Of a stretch of DNA of 64,000 nucleotides, positions 8,188 through 62,342 are shown one piece after another (the stretch's first letter is position 1; every line of letters begins with the position of its first letter). The position numbers and the translations under genes were made by a program. The notes beneath the pieces were generated by a model. The model was not told where the DNA came from. It saw only the letters and a program-made list of their open reading frames with translations, and did not search any database. This DNA comes from an uncultured Flavobacteriales bacterium. GTDB lineage: Bacteria; Bacteroidota; Bacteroidia; Palsa-965. The stretch is from assembly GCA_903873905.1 (NCBI GenBank), contig CAIQQJ010000131.1, forward strand, positions 22,729 through 86,728, given 5' to 3'.

Positions 8188-8793
8188 ATGAAACAAGCTA
8201 CTAGTGCTGTGGTTCTTGCGGGTGGAAAATCGGAAAGAATGGGATGCCCAAAACCCTATTTGGACTTTCAGGGCAAGACCTTTATCGAAAAAATCATTGA
8301 AACCTATAAATTGGCGGATGTTGAAAATATTACTGTCGTTTTCAACAAAAACTACATACTTCCAATTTGGAAAAAGCTGTTGAACCATCTAAAATCTGAA
8401 GCAAGGATAATTGTCAACGATAATTCAACTGCTGGCAGATTTCATTCGCTCAAACTCGGATTGGACAACATCACTGAAACAGATTATTGTTTCATACAAA
8501 ATGTCGATAATCCGTTTGTCAGTCCGAGTTTAATAAATACCTTATATGAAAATAAAATCCCAGATGCCTACACTGTTCCTGTTCATGAAAATCATGGTGG
8601 GCATCCGATTCTTATTTCCAAATCAATCATCGATCATATTCGTAAAATTGAAAAATCAGAACTTACATTAAGGGAAATCCTTTCAAATTTCAAACGCAAT
8701 GAAGTGGTTGTAAACGATCCGTCTATTTTGTTCAATATTAATACACCAGAAGATTACAAAAAGTATTCTCTTAACAGCGGATTTTTTCTTTGA
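8188..8793 (+). CDS. molybdenum cofactor nucleotidyltransferase (MobA/MocA family; probably a cytidylyltransferase, given the XdhC and MOP-type enzyme nearby)
   Basis: 201-aa ORF. N-terminal LAGGKSERMG NTP-transferase motif typical of MobA/MocA. Confidence 0.7.
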   Translation: MKQATSAVVLAGGKSERMGCPKPYLDFQGKTFIEKIIETYKLADVENITVVFNKNYILPIWKKLLNHLKSEARIIVNDNSTAGRFHSLKLGLDNITETDYCFIQNVDNPFVSPSLINTLYENKIPDAYTVPVHENHGGHPILISKSIIDHIRKIEKSELTLREILSNFKRNEVVVNDPSILFNINTPEDYKKYSLNSGFFL

Positions 8794-8797
8794 AGCC

Positions 8798-9571
8798 ATG
8801 GAAAATATTTATGACGTGTTGTTGGAAATTCAAAAAGGCAGACGAAAGGCTGCTGTGTGCACCATAGTTCAAACAAAAGGATCTGCTCCCGCAAAAACTG
8901 GAAGCAAAATGATTGTTTATGAGGACAGCAAAATCTGGGGGACAATTGGTGGCGGAAGTCTTGAAAAAAAAGTAATTGAAAATGCAATTGCCGTGATGAC
9001 AAGTGGAAAACCAAATCTGTTTCGTCATGATTTATTGCATCAACATAACATGTGCTGTGGTGGCACCGTTGATATTTTTATTGAGCCAATTATGAAAAAA
9101 AACAAACTCTACATTTTTGGCGCGGGTCATACGGGAGTTGCGCTTGCTAAATTTGCACAACATTTCGGTTTTGAAATTGTCATTATTGATGATCGAAAAG
9201 AATATCTGGATGAAATAAAAATTCCAGAAGTAAATAAAATGAATCTTTCGCACCAAGAAGCCTTACGTGTTTTGCCTTTCGATGAACAGACTTATATCTG
9301 TATCATGACTTACAGTCATCCAATTGACAGGGAAATTTTGGCCTATTGTGTCAACAAGCCCTTCGCTTACCTTGGAATGATCGGAAGCGAACGGAAAGTT
9401 GAAATGACAAAAAAAATGTTCAGTGAAGGACTGAATATTTCCGAAGAAAAACTTTTTGCAATTGATATGCCAATGGGAATTGATATTCTTGCAGAAACTC
9501 CAGATGAAATTGCCATTAGCATTCTTTCAAAATTAATTTCAGTCAAAAATAAAGTCACACATGAAAAATAA
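8798..9571 (+). CDS. xdhC: XdhC/CoxI-family molybdenum cofactor insertion chaperone
   Basis: 257-aa ORF. XdhC_CoxI N-domain and a C-terminal Rossmann-like domain (IFGAGHTGVALAKFA). A 5-nt gap from the mocA-like gene. Confidence 0.75.
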   Translation: MENIYDVLLEIQKGRRKAAVCTIVQTKGSAPAKTGSKMIVYEDSKIWGTIGGGSLEKKVIENAIAVMTSGKPNLFRHDLLHQHNMCCGGTVDIFIEPIMKKNKLYIFGAGHTGVALAKFAQHFGFEIVIIDDRKEYLDEIKIPEVNKMNLSHQEALRVLPFDEQTYICIMTYSHPIDREILAYCVNKPFAYLGMIGSERKVEMTKKMFSEGLNISEEKLFAIDMPMGIDILAETPDEIAISILSKLISVKNKVTHEK

Positions 9572-10298
9572 AATCGCATTAGTAACAGGAGCATCAAAGG
9601 GAATTGGAAAAGCCATTGTAGAAAGATTGGTGAATGAAAATTATTTTGTGCTCGCCATTGATATTGACAAGGAAAATGGAGAACGTCTGCAAAATGAAAT
9701 GGGCAATGATAAAATCCGTTTTATTTCAGTTGACATTTGCGACGAAAATAAAACAACCGAATTATTCAAAACCATTTCTTCAGAATATGGACAGCTTGAT
9801 GTTCTTGTCAATAATGCAGGAATCATAAAAGACAACATGATCTGGAAAATGCCTGTGGAAGATTTTGATGCTGTGATCAATGTAAATCTCAAAGGAACTT
9901 GGTTGATGTGCAGAGAAGCTGCGAAAATGATGAAAAATCAGAATAGCGGAAGAATTGTAAACATTGCATCACGCGCGTGGTTGGGCAATCGCGGGCAAAG
10001 TAATTATTCCGCATCCAAAGCTGGCGTAATTGGTCTTACACGTGTGCTTGCGCTTGAATTGGGGAAATATAATGTTTGCGTAAACGCAGTCGCACCAGGA
10101 TTAATTGACACGCCACTTTCGCAAAAATTGGAAAAGGATGTTTTACAAAAACTGATTGACGCACAACCAACAAGAACAATGGGAAAACCTGAGGATGTTG
10201 CCAACGCAGTCGCATTTCTCGCATCAGAAAAAACCCAATTCATTACCGGCCAAACCATTTATGTTGATGGCGGTAAAAGTATAGGTGCGGGGAATTAA
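9561..10298 (+). CDS. short-chain dehydrogenase/reductase, 3-oxoacyl-ACP reductase (FabG)-like
   Basis: 245-aa ORF. TGASKGIGKAI cofactor motif, NNAG, YSASKAG catalytic motif. Overlaps the xdhC stop by 11 nt. Confidence 0.85.
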   Translation: MKNKIALVTGASKGIGKAIVERLVNENYFVLAIDIDKENGERLQNEMGNDKIRFISVDICDENKTTELFKTISSEYGQLDVLVNNAGIIKDNMIWKMPVEDFDAVINVNLKGTWLMCREAAKMMKNQNSGRIVNIASRAWLGNRGQSNYSASKAGVIGLTRVLALELGKYNVCVNAVAPGLIDTPLSQKLEKDVLQKLIDAQPTRTMGKPEDVANAVAFLASEKTQFITGQTIYVDGGKSIGAGN

Positions 10299-19968: not shown

Positions 19969-19987
19969 AAATAAGTGGCATATTAAT

Positions 19988-20034
19988 AAGAAACCCGAAG
20001 ATTTTTTTCTTCGGGTTTCTTATTATTTTTTTTC
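19988..20034. terminator. bidirectional rho-independent terminator between the convergent lyase and cytochrome c genes
   Basis: AAGAAACCCGAAG-loop-CTTCGGGTTTCTT stem, followed by a T-run (and an A-run on the other side). Confidence 0.75.
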
Positions 20035-20038
20035 TCAA

Positions 20039-20731
20039 TTAAATCCCTTTGGGACATAAACCCAACACTTCCTTTTTATTCCAAGAAGAACACCCAGGGA
20101 ACTTGCTGCATGTTGCGTAAATATCGCAGCTACTTTTTACGCGACTTACTTTCTTGTAGGTAGCTGCAGGAGTAAGATCAAATTTTATCCCTTGCTGTTT
20201 CAAAATGCGTTTCGCATTCCAAACTGAATACGCCACCACTACAATGAAAACAGAAAAAAATATGTACAAGTACAGCAATGGATTTTCAAAAAGCATTGCG
20301 TGTGTTTTGGGCGTGTTTGATTGGGCAATTACAGGAGGAACAGCAAGTTTTGCTTTTTCCTTTTCTGCTGCCACGGCAAGACCTGTATTGGTAATGTAGC
20401 TAAACACTGCTTTCATTTCAGGTTCCGTAAGTTTCTGATCCGGCATTGGAATTTTGAATTGATCAAACAATGCTTTTGCATCTGCATCCCCGCTTGCAAT
20501 GAAAGTGGTAGAACTTTTCACCCATTTCAAAAGCCATGCTTCAGGTCGTTTTGTTGTTACTCCTGAAAGATCTGGCCCGACCAAGCGACCTTTTCCTATT
20601 GTGTGGCAGGATCCACAATTATTTTTGAAAGTGGCTTCACCATCCTGAGCAATACCTGAAAACGGAAAAAGAAACAATAAAGCGATCACAAATGCAACAA
20701 CGTTTTTAGTCAACTTTTTTGAAAAACTCAT
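20039..20731 (-). CDS. membrane-anchored mono-heme c-type cytochrome
   Basis: 230-aa ORF. Signal peptide. CGSCH heme-binding motif. A C-terminal TM helix and a Cys-rich tail. Confidence 0.7.
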   Translation of the reverse strand: MSFSKKLTKNVVAFVIALLFLFPFSGIAQDGEATFKNNCGSCHTIGKGRLVGPDLSGVTTKRPEAWLLKWVKSSTTFIASGDADAKALFDQFKIPMPDQKLTEPEMKAVFSYITNTGLAVAAEKEKAKLAVPPVIAQSNTPKTHAMLFENPLLYLYIFFSVFIVVVAYSVWNAKRILKQQGIKFDLTPAATYKKVSRVKSSCDIYATCSKFPGCSSWNKKEVLGLCPKGI

Positions 20732-28114: not shown

Positions 28115-28576
28115 ATGAAAATGAATCTCACTATGAAAAAATTAACTTTTAGCCCTATAAAGCTCATTTCTGGAATGACCGTGATCCTTGGATTATTGTT
28201 TGTTAGCTCCTGTAAAAAAGATGTTGGGCCAATTATCATACCTCCTGCAAATGCTCCTCCAGTGAGTTTTGCCTCTGAAATTCAACCAATCTTTACCACA
28301 AATTGTGCTGTAGGTGGTTGTCACGATGGTTCTGCATATGACCCAAATCTATCAGCTGGAGTAGCTTATGTTAATACTGTGAATGTTCCTGCTCCTTCTT
28401 ACGCTCCTTATTTTTTGATAAGACCAAGCAAGGCTGACAGCTCCGTTATTTATCATAAAATGTTGAACGATGATGCAGGTACTTATGGTGGCAAAATGCC
28501 TCCTGCTGGTGTTTTACCAGCAACTCAACTTGATCTATTGAAAACCTGGATCAACCAAGGTGCATTGAATAATTAA
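28115..28576 (+). CDS. lipoprotein with a Cys-X4-Cys-His motif (putative cytochrome-c-like / metal-binding domain)
   Basis: 153-aa ORF. Lipobox LFVSSC. IQPIFTTNCAVGGCHDG resembles planctomycete-cytochrome-C-type domains but with CX4CH spacing. Confidence 0.5.
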   Translation: MKMNLTMKKLTFSPIKLISGMTVILGLLFVSSCKKDVGPIIIPPANAPPVSFASEIQPIFTTNCAVGGCHDGSAYDPNLSAGVAYVNTVNVPAPSYAPYFLIRPSKADSSVIYHKMLNDDAGTYGGKMPPAGVLPATQLDLLKTWINQGALNN

Positions 28577-28584
28577 TTGCCTTC

Positions 28585-28626
28585 ACTACAACATTGATTT
28601 TTTTAATTAAAAATCAATGTTGTAGT
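28585..28626 (+). terminator. long perfect hairpin downstream of the CX4CH lipoprotein gene
   Basis: ACTACAACATTGATTTTT-TTAATT-AAAAATCAATGTTGTAGT: 18-bp perfect arms and no clear U-tract. Could be a terminator or an RNA-processing / regulatory structure. Confidence 0.5.
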
Positions 28627-28713
28627 ATAACACAACTATTTTTGTACCGTTCAGTGATAAATCAAAGTTTGTTTCAAAATTGAAAAAATAAATAAAAACT
28701 AAAAACTAAAAAC

Positions 28714-58681: not shown

Positions 58682-60208
58682 TTAATGTTTGAAATGTCTG
58701 TTTCCTGTGAAAACCATTGCCATATTGTGTGCGTCACAATACGCGATGGAATCTTTGTCTTTGATTGATCCGCCTGGTTGAATGACTGCGTGTATTCCAA
58801 CTTTATCCGCAATTTCCACACAATCTGGAAAAGGAAAAAACGCGTCGGAAGCCATTACTGCACCATGAAGATCAAAACCAAAAGCTTTCGTTTTATCAAT
58901 GGCTTGTCGCAATGCATCAACACGTGATGTTTGTCCAGTGCCACTTGCGAGAAGCTGGCGATTTTTTGCAAAGACAATTGTATTTGATTTTGTATGCTTG
59001 ACAAGTTTATTTGCGAAAACCAAATCATCATATTCAGCAGCAGTAGGAACAGCTTTTGTAGCTGGCTTCATATCGGCAGTTGATTCTGTTCGCAGATCTT
59101 TGTCTTGAGTAATTACGCCATTGAGTAAAGAGCGAAATTGCGTTTTCGGAAGACTCACTTGTTTTTGTACAAGTATGATTCTGTTTTGTTTTTGCTTAAG
59201 GATTTCCAATGCAGCTGGATCGAATGAAGGAGCGATAATCACTTCGAAGAAAATTTTTGTGATCTCCAAGGCGGCAACGGAATCAATATTTCTGTTGCAA
59301 ACTAAAATTCCTCCGAAGGCAGAAACAGGATCGGCAGCTAATGCGGCGTTCCAAGCATCTACTACCGAATCGCGAGAAGCCAAACCGCAGGCATTATTGT
59401 GCTTGATAATTGCAAATGTGCATTCGTTGAAATCGGCAATAAGATTTACGGCAGCATCAACATCAAGCAAATTATTGTAGGAAAGTTCCTTTCCTGAAAT
59501 CTGTTCGAACATGCCATTCAGATCGCCGAAAAATTTTGCTTGTTGATGCGGATTTTCTCCGTAGCGCAATGCTTTTCCACCATTCTCAGCTTGACGGAAA
59601 ACCAATTCACTTTCATCGGCATTGAACCAATTGAAAATGGCGGTATCGTAATTGGAAGAAATAGCGAAAGCTTTTGTTGCGAATTTTTTTCTGTCGGATA
59701 AATCTGAATTTCCGTTTTTGTCGTTGAGTAATTCCAACAAGGAAGGATAATCATCGCGGGAAGAAACAATGATAACATCTGCGAAATTTTTTGCTGCAGC
59801 GCGGATCAATGAAATTCCACCGATGTCAATTTTTTCGATGATGTCCTGTTCGGCAGCACCTGAGGAAACGGTTTGTTCGAAAGGATACAAATCAACAATC
59901 ACCAAATCGATTTCAGGAATTTTATATTCTTCCAGTTGATCAATATCAGATTGTAATTCGCGACGACTTAAGATTCCACCGAAAATTTTTGGATGAAGTG
60001 TTTTTACTCTTCCACCGAGAATGGAAGGATAGGAGGTGAGCGTTTCAACAGGTGTAACAGGAATTCCAAGCTTCTCAATAAAAGCTTGTGTGCCTCCTGT
60101 GCTATAAAGTCCAACACCCAGTTCATTCAGTTTACGAATGACGGGTTCAAGATTATCCTTGTAAAAGACAGAAATCAGTGCGTTTTTTATTTTCTTTTGG
60201 CCGCTCAT
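58682..60208 (-). CDS. purH: bifunctional AICAR transformylase / IMP cyclohydrolase
   Basis: About 509 aa from MSGQKKIKNALISVFYK (the ORF track starts 26 codons earlier). MGS-like and AICARFT domains (KTLHPKI..., GGT.A). Confidence 0.9.
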   Translation of the reverse strand: MSGQKKIKNALISVFYKDNLEPVIRKLNELGVGLYSTGGTQAFIEKLGIPVTPVETLTSYPSILGGRVKTLHPKIFGGILSRRELQSDIDQLEEYKIPEIDLVIVDLYPFEQTVSSGAAEQDIIEKIDIGGISLIRAAAKNFADVIIVSSRDDYPSLLELLNDKNGNSDLSDRKKFATKAFAISSNYDTAIFNWFNADESELVFRQAENGGKALRYGENPHQQAKFFGDLNGMFEQISGKELSYNNLLDVDAAVNLIADFNECTFAIIKHNNACGLASRDSVVDAWNAALAADPVSAFGGILVCNRNIDSVAALEITKIFFEVIIAPSFDPAALEILKQKQNRIILVQKQVSLPKTQFRSLLNGVITQDKDLRTESTADMKPATKAVPTAAEYDDLVFANKLVKHTKSNTIVFAKNRQLLASGTGQTSRVDALRQAIDKTKAFGFDLHGAVMASDAFFPFPDCVEIADKVGIHAVIQPGGSIKDKDSIAYCDAHNMAMVFTGNRHFKH

Positions 60209-60680
60209 AATATTTATCGGGAAATAGTAGCCAAAGCTAAGAGTTTTAGCGGGGTGAAAAACGATGAAATCCCCAATTTTCCCCAATGTTAAAAAAAACT
60301 TTTCTTGTTGATAAACTTCGATTTTCGGAGTTTAATTTCCTTCACCAAAAATCGTTTTTCAATGCGAATTAAAATTTGAAAACGGACAAGTGTTCGAGGA
60401 TTTCTATTTCATCAATACAATTCCCCTATATGTGTTTTTGAGAAGAGAATTTACTGTGCCGAATGCGTTGATTTCATAGCCCCGGCTGTAGCGGCACCCC
60501 GCAGTTGCGCTGGATTGCGCATGGAACGAGGAGTATAGCGGAAGACGGGACCAAACGGAAATTTGATGCCGCAGGTGGTGCGCTCCCAAATTACCCCCAA
60601 TGGCGCAATGTTCGCAAAGATTTATTAGAATATTTTGATCTCCCAACTCCTAACTCCCTACTCCTAGCTAACTTTACCGC

Positions 60681-61931
60681 ATGTTATTCCTAACACTACT
60701 CAAAGAAAGTGTGCTATTTGCATTTCATGCCTTGCGGGTAAACCGTTTGCGGACCATGTTGTCGCTTTTGGGAATTACGATTGGCATTTTTGCAATTATC
60801 GCTGTGTTTACGGCGGTTGATTCGATGGCCAATAAGATCAGAAGCAGTGTGAAATCGCTTGGCGATAATGTGGTTTTTGTTCAGAAATGGCCTTGGGTTC
60901 CAGAAGGCGGTGGTGAATATGCTTGGTGGAAATACTTGAATCGGCCAGTTCCAAAAATTGCAGAAAGTGATGAAGTTCGAAGAAGGTTGTTGACTGCTGA
61001 GGCGGTTGTTTACAATGCCAATTCGAGAGCGACTGTTTATTACAAAACCTCCTTTATCGAAAATGCTTCATTGGTAGGAACAACCTTTGAGTACAATAAA
61101 GTAAAGACTTTTGATCTTTCAGCAGGCCGATATTTTACACAGCAGGAATGTGGTGTTGGAAGTTCTGTTGCCATCATAGGAAGCAGTATTGCTGCCGGAG
61201 TTTTTCATGATGAAGATCCGATTGGCAAACAAATAAAAATACTTGGAAGAAAGGTTACTGTCATTGGCGTTTTCAAAGAGGAAGGCGAAAGCATGATGGG
61301 AAACAGCAACGACAATAATGTTTTGATTCCGCTGAATTTCGCACGCACAGTAATGGAAGTTGAAAAGGATGAAGTGGATCCTTTCATTATGGTGAAGGTG
61401 AAAGAAAATGTGAGTACAGCGGATTTGAAAGATGAATTGACTGGCGTGATGCGTAGTTTGCGACGATTAAAACCAGGAGAAGAAAATAATTTTTCATTGA
61501 ATGAAGTGAGTGTTTTGTCGGGACCGATGGAATCTGTGTTTGGTGTGATTGGAACGGTGGGTTGGATCATTGGAGCATTCTCCATTCTAGTTGGAGGATT
61601 TGGAATTGCGAATATCATGTTTGTCTCGGTGCGTGAACGGACTAGTCAGATTGGAATTCAGAAATCGCTTGGAGCGAAAAGTTGGTTTATTCTGATGCAA
61701 TTTTTGGCGGAATCAGTTGTTTTATGTTTGTTCGGAGGAATAATTGGATTGTTGTTGGATTGGGTATTGGTATTAATTGCGAATAGATTCATTGATTTCG
61801 GATTTGTTCTTTCCTTCAACAACATTTCATTGGGATTAACGATTTCAATTTTGATTGGGATAATTTCTGGATTTATTCCTGCCTATTCCGCAGCACAATT
61901 GGATCCGGTAGAAGCGATTCGAAGCAACTAA
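60681..61931 (+). CDS. ABC transporter permease, FtsX/MacB-type
   Basis: 416-aa ORF. N-terminal TM. Large periplasmic MacB_PCD-like domain. Three to four C-terminal TMs (FtsX-like). Confidence 0.8.
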   Translation: MLFLTLLKESVLFAFHALRVNRLRTMLSLLGITIGIFAIIAVFTAVDSMANKIRSSVKSLGDNVVFVQKWPWVPEGGGEYAWWKYLNRPVPKIAESDEVRRRLLTAEAVVYNANSRATVYYKTSFIENASLVGTTFEYNKVKTFDLSAGRYFTQQECGVGSSVAIIGSSIAAGVFHDEDPIGKQIKILGRKVTVIGVFKEEGESMMGNSNDNNVLIPLNFARTVMEVEKDEVDPFIMVKVKENVSTADLKDELTGVMRSLRRLKPGEENNFSLNEVSVLSGPMESVFGVIGTVGWIIGAFSILVGGFGIANIMFVSVRERTSQIGIQKSLGAKSWFILMQFLAESVVLCLFGGIIGLLLDWVLVLIANRFIDFGFVLSFNNISLGLTISILIGIISGFIPAYSAAQLDPVEAIRSN

Positions 61932-61988: not shown

Positions 61989-62342
61989 ATGGCCCACGTA
62001 ATCAGAAAACGTCCTCGAATCATTTCAATACTTGGTGTTGTTGGATTTATTGTTTCCGCAGGACAGATCATTGCCATTTCCGCTCCCAGCATTCGTGACG
62101 TGGCGAGTTGGTATCCGATTGTTTATGGGATGATCATTTCACTTCGTTTCATTTCGATTGTTGGTGTGTGGCACATGAAAAAATGGGGGGCAGAATTATT
62201 TACATATGTCACCATTATAAAAATCTTGGCGCAAACACTACTGAATGATTTTGGAATGGTTTCCAGAGGAGATGCAATCATTTCCATCGTCTTCTCCATT
62301 GTGTTGATGAGTTTTTATAAGCGGATGGATAGAGGATTGTGA
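61989..62342 (+). CDS. small membrane protein (hypothetical)
   Basis: 117-aa ORF with 3-4 hydrophobic helices. Confidence 0.35.
   Translation: MAHVIRKRPRIISILGVVGFIVSAGQIIAISAPSIRDVASWYPIVYGMIISLRFISIVGVWHMKKWGAELFTYVTIIKILAQTLLNDFGMVSRGDAIISIVFSIVLMSFYKRMDRGL

Follow-up and report, generated by a model that had tools for sequence, protein, structure and literature searches.

A diverged Flavo-1 hairpin element in the spacer between purH and an ABC permease gene of a Bacteroidota genome

Flavo-1 (RF01705; Weinberg et al. 2010, PMC2864571) is a structured element of Bacteroidota, mainly of Flavobacteriia, and ranks among the most abundant predicted 'sRNA' families of this group (PMC9029176). 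Copies of the type relevant here carry a UAGCC tag, a basal stem of 3-4 bp with single-nucleotide bulges and a 2-bp step, GNA/GGA purine loops flanking a GC/GC step, AGCGG in both arms and a variable apical domain, and they occupy intergenic sites. A second subtype is tagged GCGUUA instead. It has the same P1 hairpin core and, past a short variable segment, an extra conserved 3' element; its 5' GCGUU pairs with 3' AACGC across a second covarying small hairpin, with CCC(A/U)AA following. An architecture with several helices is more reminiscent of a structured RNA than of a plain repeat in DNA. In Flavobacterium psychrophilum 128 Flavo-1 copies are sense to, antisense to or outside transcripts; copies lie antisense in the 5'UTRs of ftsY, alaS and valS, and for one copy the element's own strand was at background, with a signal of 10 on the opposite strand (PMC9723704).

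Two mobile-element systems provide further points of comparison. REP/BIME sequences, which RAYT transposases (Y1, HUH) mobilize, are short imperfect extragenic palindromes with a conserved unpaired tag at the foot; like Flavo-1, they are dispersed between genes in either orientation to transcription and are patchy at orthologous sites. IS200/IS605 ends likewise have an imperfect hairpin. A short conserved sequence lies on one side of its foot, at a set distance, and conserved unpaired sequence is found on the other. IS608 illustrates this arrangement, in which the IS200/IS605 end combines a subterminal hairpin with a cleavage site at a fixed distance.

The window analyzed here is a 64-kb stretch of DNA in which purH (minus strand, ATG at 60208, 508 aa) and a MacB_PCD/FtsX ABC permease gene (plus strand, 60681-61931) are separated by a spacer of 472 nt (60209-60680). 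A preliminary description of this DNA had correctly named both neighbors and their strands, and had drawn attention to a GC-rich, hairpin-dense island between them that lacked a convincing ORF. The compositional claim was borne out: GC content was 52.3% over 60465-60640, compared with 33.1% in the left part of the spacer (60211-60464) and a window mean of 37.9%, and was 59.1% in the core at 60474-60600 and 60.6% at 60482-60590. At approximately 60% GC, 60474-60590 was the richest stretch in the window. The island had the highest GC content among all segments of 110 nt and of 176 nt in the 64 kb, and the 0.016% of 110-nt segments that matched its value were all located at the island. The ORFs in the island were short and overlapped on both strands, and a Pfam search of three ORFs across it gave zero matches. 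'Hairpin-dense' held to the eye but not thermodynamically. Both of the small hairpins quoted in its support are present, GCGG-CACC-CCGC at 60491-60502 and UGCGC-UGGAUU-GCGCA at 60506-60521, but the 176 nt folded no better than shuffled sequence (z = +1.5 on the plus strand and +0.4 on the minus strand). Only the second hairpin is used in the conserved fold, where it is apical; the first overlaps the AGCGG motif, which pairs elsewhere.

An Rfam scan of the whole window at gathering thresholds identified tRNA only. When the island was scanned permissively, Flavo-1 alone was returned, at 60474-60556 on the plus strand (33.2 bits; E = 3.4e-5 for 651 nt and 0.0034 for 64 kb); this was the only credible match and had been missed by eye. 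ZTP, THF, SRP, 6S and RNase P, to which the island had already seemed dissimilar on inspection, were absent from the Rfam scans too. The score falls below the curated gathering threshold of 42 bits for the 76-nt RF01705 model, as do the scores of two homologues (L094, 27.1 bits; L159, 30.0 bits). Above the threshold were L014/L121 at the orthologous position (44.7 bits) and L129 at an unrelated locus (45.2 bits). Because a copy at the orthologous position and a copy at an unrelated locus both pass, the window can be taken to hold a diverged member of the family. The nearest proteins and loci came from uncultured Bacteroidia/Bacteroidota MAGs and then from Flavobacteriales families, which agrees with the host range of Flavo-1, and the conserved nucleotides of the family were all found in the window copy. 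It departs from the consensus in the 5' arm, where GAU is replaced by GGC, in the replacement of GGAAA-UCC by GGCACCCC, in a C.A mismatch in the inner stem and in a GC-rich apical hairpin; beyond the Rfam model it has an extra spacer of approximately 30 nt and a GCUCC box. Sequence and predicted fold together identify the island as a single diverged Flavo-1 copy of the UAGCC-tagged type, an element of Bacteroidota.

On the plus strand, the UAGCC tag and hairpin are preceded by a U-rich 5' flank, GAUUUC at 60470-60475 (A/U-UUUC in all homologues in our alignments A3 and A4, and 'uuu' in the Rfam consensus), which could pair with GGAAAU at 60558-60563. The UAGCC tag stands directly 5' of the stem at 60477-60481. 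Its AGCC is invariant in A3 and A4, it is present in the Rfam consensus (uuuUAGCC) and in the Weinberg alignment, and it is the hallmark of UAGCC-type copies. The last tag base, C60481, is already paired to G60549. These two nucleotides delimit an imperfect hairpin of 69 nt with GNAGCGGA in both arms, for which the RF01705 match and the MFE fold gave the same topology. The outer stem (60481-60484 with 60546-60549) is followed by the bulges G60485 and A60545, a 2-bp step (60486-60487 with 60543-60544), a 3x3 purine loop (GUA 60488-60490 opposite GGA 60540-60542), the GC/GC step (60491-60492 with 60538-60539), a second loop (GGC 60493-60495 opposite AUA 60535-60537) and the inner stem (60496-60500 with 60530-60534). 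The inner stem contains the C60498.A60532 mismatch; 12 of 30 published Flavo-1 rows also have C.A at that pair. The motif G-N-A-G-C-G-G-N is represented by GUAGCGGC in the 5' arm (60488-60495) and by AUAGCGGA in the 3' arm (60535-60542); its AGCG/AGCGGA columns are invariant in A3 and A4 and recur in the family alignment. Both arms match G-N-A-G-C-G-G-A with one deviation, C60495, where the consensus has A. Facing each other, GUAGCGGC and AUAGCGGA are predicted to form a two-fold-symmetric non-Watson-Crick segment around the GC/GC step. The variable apical domain (60501-60529) is treated as a local end in the Rfam model. It was 66-74% identical among the alpha-type copies (window, L094 and L159) and differed in length and sequence in other homologues, with whole-hairpin lengths of 69, 70, 69, 67, 85 and 36 nt.

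Downstream of the hairpin, a spacer of 31 nt (60550-60580) is poorly conserved in sequence, with its length, measured by hand from the homologue sequences, kept at 29-32 nt. A non-conserved mini-ORF has its ATG in this spacer, at 60566, and a within-species SNP, T60579C, also falls there. A candidate spacer hairpin, P2 (60550-60552 with 60574-60576 and 60556-60558 with 60569-60571), gave weak folds (z between -2.2 and +1.6) and was rejected. The 3' box that follows, CGCUCC at 60581-60586 (context GGTGGTGCGCTCC, 60574-60586), has its GCUCC core at a fixed distance from the hairpin foot. The box was invariant in seven independent homologues, with 1-nt variants in two more, and GCUCC was found 3' of canonical UAGCC-type Flavo-1 copies as well. 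Located approximately 30 nt 3' of the hairpin and beyond the Rfam model, it appears to be previously undescribed. In the place where the GCGUUA type has its own 3' element the window type has GCUCC, and a convincing closing helix could not be drawn for it. Two other pairings were discarded as general features: that of the box with the arm AGCG, which is a perfect 12 bp in one F. psychrophilum copy, fails where arms that have covaried to AGUG or AACG keep GCUCC, and a closing helix UUUUAG/CUAAAA suits the copies at ftsY and valS of F. psychrophilum and does not work in the present lineage. The whole segment that is present or absent between relatives, as judged from the alignment of filled and empty spacers, spans approximately 60437-60620 (175-185 nt, ends inexact).

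The basal helix (3-4 bp, bulge, 2 bp) is backed by covariation. In alignment A4 (10 homologues), whose fitting to the Flavo-1 model qualifies the pairing and covariation figures, 4 of 8 basal pairs showed compensatory changes and 98.8% of basal cells were paired, compared with 29-49% when the 3' partner was slid. Cells with both sides changed numbered 13 compared with 3.9 in shuffles, a value reached by 0 of 500 shuffles. The pair types included CG/GC/GU/UA, UA/CG/UG and AU/UA/GC, and the same basal pairs covary across 41 published Flavo-1 members. No functional strand was singled out by the counts of G.U (6) versus C.A (12), and fold energies were on average equal on both strands.

Comparison with related genomes revealed the unit, of approximately 180 nt, in only 4 of 14 purH/permease spacers, in accord with the insert-like character suspected for the island. 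The lineages with the unit, which fall into two separate clades, are the window species, L094 (88% permease identity), L159 (80%) and L014 (78%). Spacers without the unit were those of L095 and L157 (86% each), L010 (83%), L096 (82%), L158 (81%), L097 (80%), L160 (78%), L012 (77%), L015 (74%) and L021 (70%). In all four carrier lineages the unit lies approximately 95 nt upstream of the permease ATG, and in L014 and L159 an inserted gene separates it from purH. The basal arms were 95-100% identical among lineages in which the permease was only 80-88% identical and the flanking spacer 15-31%. This conservation against diverged flanks suggests selection, and speaks against a relic in the sense of decaying DNA. 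One sister lineage had a different hairpin type in the same spacer; the basal arms of the sisters L159 and L014 were 60% identical, and those of L014 and the unrelated locus L129 were 87-90% identical. Elsewhere, the unit neighbors an rve transposase and an Rhs fragment in L129/L139 and follows an aspartyl-protease gene in L151. Sequence comparison characterizes the unit as an accessory module that has been repeatedly gained, lost or replaced in the purH/permease spacer.

We also searched more widely for copies and for signs of mobility. A metagenome pattern scan gave 58 matches; 5 loci, representing 3 distinct sequences, proved genuine, and the others were GC-rich matches by chance. Four real copies of the unit were present in IMG/VR viral contigs, and other matches in two pattern scans were mostly chance. 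Searches of phage and plasmid collections by blastn gave zero matches, and a phage or plasmid origin is unsupported. No sign of the high copy number typical of REP-like elements was obtained for this lineage: the window contained one copy, and a search of relatives' flanks (1.56 Mb) with model R1, which covers hairpin and box, gave only the syntenic ones. This density of at most 1 per 64 kb compares with one copy per approximately 22 kb in F. psychrophilum. Terminal inverted repeats, a target-site duplication and an associated mobilizing gene were all looked for and not found. An AGAAWTTT-like direct repeat at 60443-60450 and 60624-60633 is single-copy in empty sites; it is only suggestive, as the spacers are too diverged to fix the junctions.

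Our preferred reading, to which we assign a probability of roughly 0.55, is that the island is a dispersed, structured element subject to gain or loss and is not a riboswitch for purH or the permease. The window copy, like other Flavo-1 copies, would act as a REP-like structured element. Its hairpin would form in single-stranded nucleic acid, either in RNA under read-through transcription or in single-stranded DNA, and would present a dimeric binding factor with a two-fold-symmetric site, to which the GCUCC box would add a putative second one at a fixed distance. Spread or replacement may proceed via recombination or some mobilizing activity. The preliminary description had proposed a structured ncRNA or a relic of foreign DNA; what stands of this is a covarying hairpin of an Rfam RNA family that behaves like an insert, and what is not supported is the riboswitch or leader and the decaying relic.

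A more speculative extension, which we put forward as tentative, is that the UAGCC type of Flavo-1 is larger than the Rfam model and comprises the tag, the symmetric-loop hairpin, the spacer of approximately 30 nt and the GCUCC box. Such a unit might be a mobile or recombining cassette that a dimeric nucleic-acid-binding or HUH-like enzyme recognizes. It would then represent the Bacteroidota equivalent of REP/RAYT, differing in its tag, in a second site at a fixed distance and in the re-occupation of sites, the last suggested by sister lineages that have different hairpin types at one spacer position. Alternatively, the architecture might be that of a widespread protein-binding RNA module. The likeness to REP has limits. 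UAGCC stands in place of the GTAG or CGTC tag; the REP stem is short and perfect, whereas the hairpin here exceeds it in length and has conserved internal loops below a variable tip; and association with a RAYT gene is absent, with no Y1 transposase detected in the 64-kb window by tblastn. A Y1_Tnp gene lies near the locus in L010. The RAYT-like Y1_Tnp genes of L010, L096 and L012 were flanked by a different palindrome, TTGCCACGGGATTAATCCCGTGGCAA, and a RAYT link was rejected. Compared with IS200/IS605 ends, the spacing is approximately 30 nt instead of 10-19 nt, and a transposase and paired left and right ends are absent; this parallel is a resemblance only, and cleavage or single-strand transposition is not implied by it.

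The strongest competitor, though one we consider clearly less probable than a dispersed element, is a stand-alone small RNA gene on the plus strand that starts 20-30 nt upstream of UAGCC, contains the Flavo-1 hairpin and ends past GCUCC. Its product would either work in trans or serve as a protein-binding RNA, with the box as a seed or protein site. Rfam and Weinberg et al. (2010) class Flavo-1 as a covarying sRNA, and the purine-rich symmetric loops and the architecture of the GCGUUA type are RNA-like. Wherever a neighbor could be read, moreover, the element had the same orientation as the gene next to it, be it downstream or upstream. In F. psychrophilum, however, transcripts run sense as well as antisense to the copies, many of which are not transcribed. 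A weak AAnnTTTR box is located 27-30 nt upstream of UAGCC in 4 of 4 orthologous carriers, but the TA of TAnnTTTG is missing from it, and L129 and L151 have no such box. In L129 the GCUCC box is followed by a U-run; a terminator-like site was not predicted. The lack of strand bias in G.U versus C.A and the swap of hairpin type between sister lineages also count against an sRNA gene.

We regard as improbable a DNA-level regulatory or promoter cassette, whose protein-binding or alternative-sigma promoter elements, the AGCGGA direct repeat of the arms and the GCUCC box, would tune the downstream gene, here the permease. The non-conserved spacer of constant length (29-32 nt) between hairpin and box and the shared distance of the unit from the permease ATG in four lineages would fit such a cassette, as would an ECF-promoter-like GGAAMT-N17-18-CGCTCC in the window, L159, L014, L129, L151 and sludgeOz. 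This promoter candidate was rejected, as L250 and a second canonical copy do not have GGAAMT; to our knowledge, CGCTCC corresponds to no known -10 motif. Most orthologous permease genes, moreover, do without the unit, and in F. psychrophilum ftsY and valS have it upstream in the opposite orientation.

The promoters of the two flanking genes bear on a third possibility, namely that the island acts in cis, as a leader or riboswitch, on the permease mRNA or, on the opposite strand, on purH. ZTP riboswitches often precede purH, and the island lies upstream of both genes and keeps its distance to the permease in four lineages. A Bacteroidota-type -7 box, TAACTTTA, is located at 60669-60676 on the plus strand, 4 nt before the permease ATG at 60681, and is not part of the element; TA[AT]CTTT[AG]-N3-5-ATG/GTG precedes the permease in all orthologues read. 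With the box in this position, and a 5-nt spacing from box to start site that we derived by hand from a SigA promoter example (PMC9723704, supplementary file 3), the permease mRNA is probably leaderless and the element would lie upstream of the permease promoter. purH has its own -7 box, TAGCTTTG, at 60239-60232 on the minus strand. The boxes of both genes are within 30 nt of the start codons, and by their positions the element sits between two predicted divergent core promoters. Of 14 orthologous spacers, 10 do not have the element; it has unrelated genes as neighbors elsewhere and is cut off from purH by the inserted gene in L014 and L159. ZTP, THF and other riboswitch models were unmatched at E ≤ 10, where only noise was obtained (preQ1-II, 16.7 bits, elsewhere in the spacer). 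We infer that the element is not a leader regulating purH or the permease, and the riboswitch reading is already largely refuted and very unlikely.

Equally remote is a decaying protein-coding gene fragment or inert foreign DNA, which the GC contrast with the host spacer and a 71-aa ORF called by gene callers at the island in one contig (L009) might suggest but which is opposed by the Pfam-negative ORFs, the non-triplet indels between homologues that the hairpin lengths record, the compensatory nature of the helix substitutions and the negative blastn of phage and plasmid collections. The mini-ORF that runs from the ATG at 60566 through the box (MPQVVRS...) seems conserved in three orthologues, yet was rejected: the ATG is ACG in L159, which is left with no start in frame, the frame shifts in L129 and L151, 3 to >20 codons follow the box, and a 'hydrophobic' codon is altered by the SNP T60579C.

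Taken by itself, the locus is a further copy of an orphan motif and is largely explained. Flavo-1 itself has been an orphan as to function since 2010, and the locus provides three handles on it. Genomes of close relatives supply a natural series in which the site is filled, empty or replaced; the conserved GCUCC box, which keeps its distance from the hairpin and is not covered by the Rfam model, enlarges the unit; and the element is predicted to lie outside the transcripts of the neighboring genes. With existing metagenomes and F. psychrophilum transcriptomes, these handles would make it testable whether Flavo-1 acts as mobile DNA or as RNA, and what the partner of its symmetric loops may be.

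The spacer between purH (minus strand, ATG at 60208, 508 aa) and the MacB_PCD/FtsX ABC permease gene (60681-61931, plus strand) is 472 nt long, and both neighbours are oriented as given in the preliminary description. Analysis of base composition revealed a GC content of 52.3% for the island at 60465-60640 and 59.1% for its core (60474-60600), compared with 33.1% for the left spacer (60211-60464) and 37.9% for the window; the GC value of the island was not matched by any other 110-nt stretch across the 64 kb. Both small hairpins quoted in that description were found in the sequence (60491-60502 and 60506-60521), and open reading frames in the island were short, on both strands and without a Pfam match, consistent with its statement that no convincing ORF exists. 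Taken together, these data confirm the original observation. Folding of the whole 176 nt was no better than that of shuffled sequence, whichever strand was used.

The Rfam scan proposed in the same description was also run. At curated thresholds only a tRNA was detected in the window. A permissive scan identified a sole credible match in the spacer, to Flavo-1 (RF01705; 60474-60556, plus strand), at a sub-threshold 33.2 bits (gathering score, 42), with E-values of 3.4e-5 (spacer) and 0.0034 (whole window). All highly conserved Flavo-1 nucleotides lie within the match, including the UAGCC tag, the outer stem and the 5'-arm AGCGG opposite the 3'-arm UAGCGGAA, and close look-alikes, such as UAGCC-CCGGUA-GUAGC-GGCGU, are found in the alignment published by Weinberg et al. 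2010 (PMC2864571). The nearest relatives of the window copy scored 27-30 bits. A copy at the equivalent site upstream of the permease gene in a related MAG (L014, identical to L121) scored 44.7 bits and a copy from an unrelated metagenomic context (L129) scored 45.2 bits; because both exceed the threshold, the window element is a diverged 'alpha' version (GGCACCCC ... GAGGAGUAUAGCGGAAGACGGGA) of Flavo-1, with the 'beta' version (GGAAAGCCC ... GGACUUGCAGCGGAUAGCCCGA) being canonical Flavo-1. The window copy is thus a diverged variant in an already known family of unknown function. Two other Rfam matches in the window were rejected. A 'His_leader' match (29.6 bits, 19983-20112, minus strand) is due to chance; it overlaps a cytochrome-c-like gene at its 3' end, as well as a terminator-like hairpin. 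This hairpin (AAGAAACCCGAAG...CTTCGGGTTTCTT) is perfect and lies between convergent genes. A match to the plant microRNA MIR4359 (34 bits, 28571-28641, minus strand) is spurious and derives from a hairpin that is long, AT-rich (21% GC) and nearly perfect.

The element comprises a U-rich flank GAUUUC (60470-75), the UAGCC tag (60477-81), the Flavo-1 hairpin (60481-60549), a spacer (60550-80) and a CGCUCC box (60581-86). From its foot upward, the hairpin has an outer stem (60481-84 with 60546-49), bulges G60485 and A60545, a 2-bp step, two loops (GUA/GGA below and GGC/AUA above) separated by a GC/GC step, an inner stem containing a C60498.A60532 mismatch, and a variable tip that carries the UGCGC/GCGCA hairpin. 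This topology was recovered by a minimum-free-energy fold of the hairpin alone. The non-Watson-Crick segment appears two-fold symmetric, because each arm reads GNAGCGGA 5' to 3'. When ten homologues were aligned to our own model of hairpin plus 3' box (R1), both sides had changed at 4 of the 8 basal pairs; 98.8% of cells were paired, compared with 29-49% once the 3' partner was slid, 13 cells were changed on both sides compared with 3.9 in shuffles, and the covariation score was reached by no shuffle. RNAalifold returned the same compensatory pairs from an independent MAFFT alignment (n = 5 sequences), and the same pairs covaried strongly in 41 published family members.

A metagenome pattern scan with the 3' arm plus box as query gave mostly chance matches, regained the L014 copy and identified two new copies (L129/L139 and L151), and scans of viral contigs identified four more (L250, L286, L324 and L311). 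The L129/L139 copy has an rve-type transposase gene on one side and an Rhs-repeat fragment on the other; the L151 copy lies directly behind an aspartyl-protease gene, itself after mdh. With model R1, neither the window nor 1.56 Mb around permease orthologues (89 genomes and contigs) yielded a further copy, so within the sequence scanned the element is not a dense repeat in this lineage. Downstream of the permease operon, relatives have a RAYT-like Y1 transposase gene (PF01797) at distances between a few hundred bases and a few kb (L010:11749-12174, minus strand, flanked by the palindrome TTGCCACGGGATTAATCCCGTGGCAA; also L096 and L012); it is absent from the window and is unrelated to Flavo-1.

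In the window, L094, L159, L014, L129, L151 and L250, the GCUCC core of the box was found 29-32 nt past the hairpin foot; L324 and L311 have variants one base off. The same hairpin-spacer-box arrangement occurs 3' of canonical UAGCC-type copies, namely sludgeOz_Contig8743 (GGUUCGCUCC at +30), a second canonical copy (GAUUCGCUCC at about +30), F. psychrophilum 1248568 (UUCGCUUC at +29) and the F. psychrophilum copies antisense in the ftsY and valS 5'UTRs (UGCUCCUAAAAA at +28); the intervening spacer is conserved in length and not in sequence. Five explanations for the box failed to hold in general: coding sequence, an ECF-type promoter, a closing helix, a hairpin within the spacer, and pairing with a hairpin arm. 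In contrast, GCGUUA-type Flavo-1 has, in place of the GCUCC arrangement, a second small hairpin and then AACGC. This 3' AACGC pairs with the 5' GCGUU to form a closing helix beyond the Rfam model, the second hairpin covaries (ACC/GGU, CCU/AGG, CCCCGA/UCGGGG and CCUUGUUG/CAACAAGG in rows of Weinberg 2010 supplementary file 29), and the resulting three-helix architecture exceeds the 76-nt Rfam model. The structured 5'UTRs of ftsY, alaS and valS, reported as new elements in F. psychrophilum (PMC9723704), hold an opposite-strand Flavo-1 copy (supplementary file 8 of that study); the ftsY and valS copies carry GGAGCA, complementary to the 3' box, with the spacing of ~28 nt retained.

The source species was seen again in freshwater metagenome assemblies, where the element was invariant except T60579C; this position, in box context, is T in the window and C in eight other same-species contigs. 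In one contig (L006), T>G and A>C differences cluster within the AT-rich spacer portion (equivalents of window 60369-60437), which may reflect assembly or sequencing error. Across orthologous spacers, the unit was present in the window species, L094 (88% permease identity to the window), L159 (80%) and L014 (78%), and absent from L095 and L157 (86%), L010/L018 (83%), L096 (82%), L158 (81%), L097 (80%), L160 (78%), L012 (77%), L015 (74%) and L021 (70%). In a neighbour-joining tree of the permease, carriers formed two separate clades, (window, L094) and (L014, L159), with non-carriers between both and as outgroups. The segment present or absent is ~175-185 nt long (roughly 60437-60620). In the L014 (~8500-9758) and L159 (1145-2740) clade a T9SS-tail gene (Por_Secre_tail) separates purH from the unit, so the element stays on the permease side. 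Arm identity among the window, L094 and L159 was 95-100%. L159 and L014, sisters at 88% permease identity, were only 60% identical in the basal arms and 54% in the spacer, and the L014 arms matched those of L129, from an unrelated locus, at 87-90% identity; thus, either one lineage underwent replacement of the unit or the same place was entered independently by different family members. The same spacer in L012 (9820-9990) holds a different insert, ~95 nt between 26-nt inverted repeats of GTTGTCGG units, which looks MITE-like, and the L097 and L160 spacers hold yet other GC-rich inserts; small elements seem to accumulate in the purH/permease spacer. Three features seem not to have been described: the GCUCC box at its fixed distance, the larger architecture of the two subtypes, and this series of filled, empty and replaced sites at a single locus.

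The reading we favour is that of a structured element, dispersed and REP-like. The strongest rival, a plus-strand small RNA gene, is favoured by the family's multi-helix, RNA-like architecture and by the co-orientation of the element with neighbouring genes, but is weakened by orientation data from F. psychrophilum, the source of the only experimental data for the family. Its 128 Flavo-1 copies were not treated as genes because matches were sense or antisense to transcribed regions, with many outside them, and one listed copy had background signal on its own strand and transcription on the opposite strand (PMC9723704). These data fit the gain, loss and replacement at this locus. Neither G.U versus C.A counts (6 versus 12) nor fold energies gave a call on the functional strand.

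All permease orthologues read carry TA[AT]CTTT[AG] followed by N3-5 and ATG/GTG; in the window this Bacteroidota-type -7 box (TAACTTTA, 60669-60676, plus strand) ends 4 nt before the ATG at 60681. As the distance from the end of the Bacteroidota -7 element TAnnTTTG to the start site is ~5 nt (worked out by hand from a SigA promoter example in PMC9723704 supplementary file 3), the permease mRNA is predicted to be leaderless, which would place the element upstream of the promoter. purH has a perfect TAnnTTTG (TAGCTTTG, 60239-60232, minus strand) ~20 nt upstream of its ATG (60208), and ~80 nt around it (GAAATAGTAnnCAAAGCTAAGnGTTTTAGCG...) are conserved in relatives. It is unlikely that the element serves either neighbouring gene as a leader or riboswitch, given these promoter boxes, the patchy distribution and the lack of a riboswitch match in the permissive Rfam scan. 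A box GGACAAGTGTTC (GGAYAAGTGTTC; 60384-60395, plus strand) that may be an operator or promoter element occurs in nearly all orthologous spacers, with or without the unit. A C-rich tandem direct repeat, CTCCCAACTCCTAA / CTCCCTACTCCTAG (60640-60667, plus strand), just upstream of the permease -7 box, occupies the expected place of a -33 element; several of the closest orthologues (L094, L014, L095 and L157) conserve it. A 117-aa gene (61989-62342, plus strand) without a significant Pfam match (sub-threshold DUF2127, E = 0.075) follows the permease gene in most orthologous loci read, which suggests a two-gene unit.

As a dispersed, REP-like element, the hairpin would form in single-stranded RNA or DNA and present a symmetric site to a binding factor, with the 3' box as a second site; the unit would spread by recombination or a mobilising activity and have no role for neighbouring genes. 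No function was assigned to Flavo-1 in its 2010 discovery, the 2021 transcriptome study or the 2022 review. The finding is now largely explained, and practical handles have been gained on an orphan motif.
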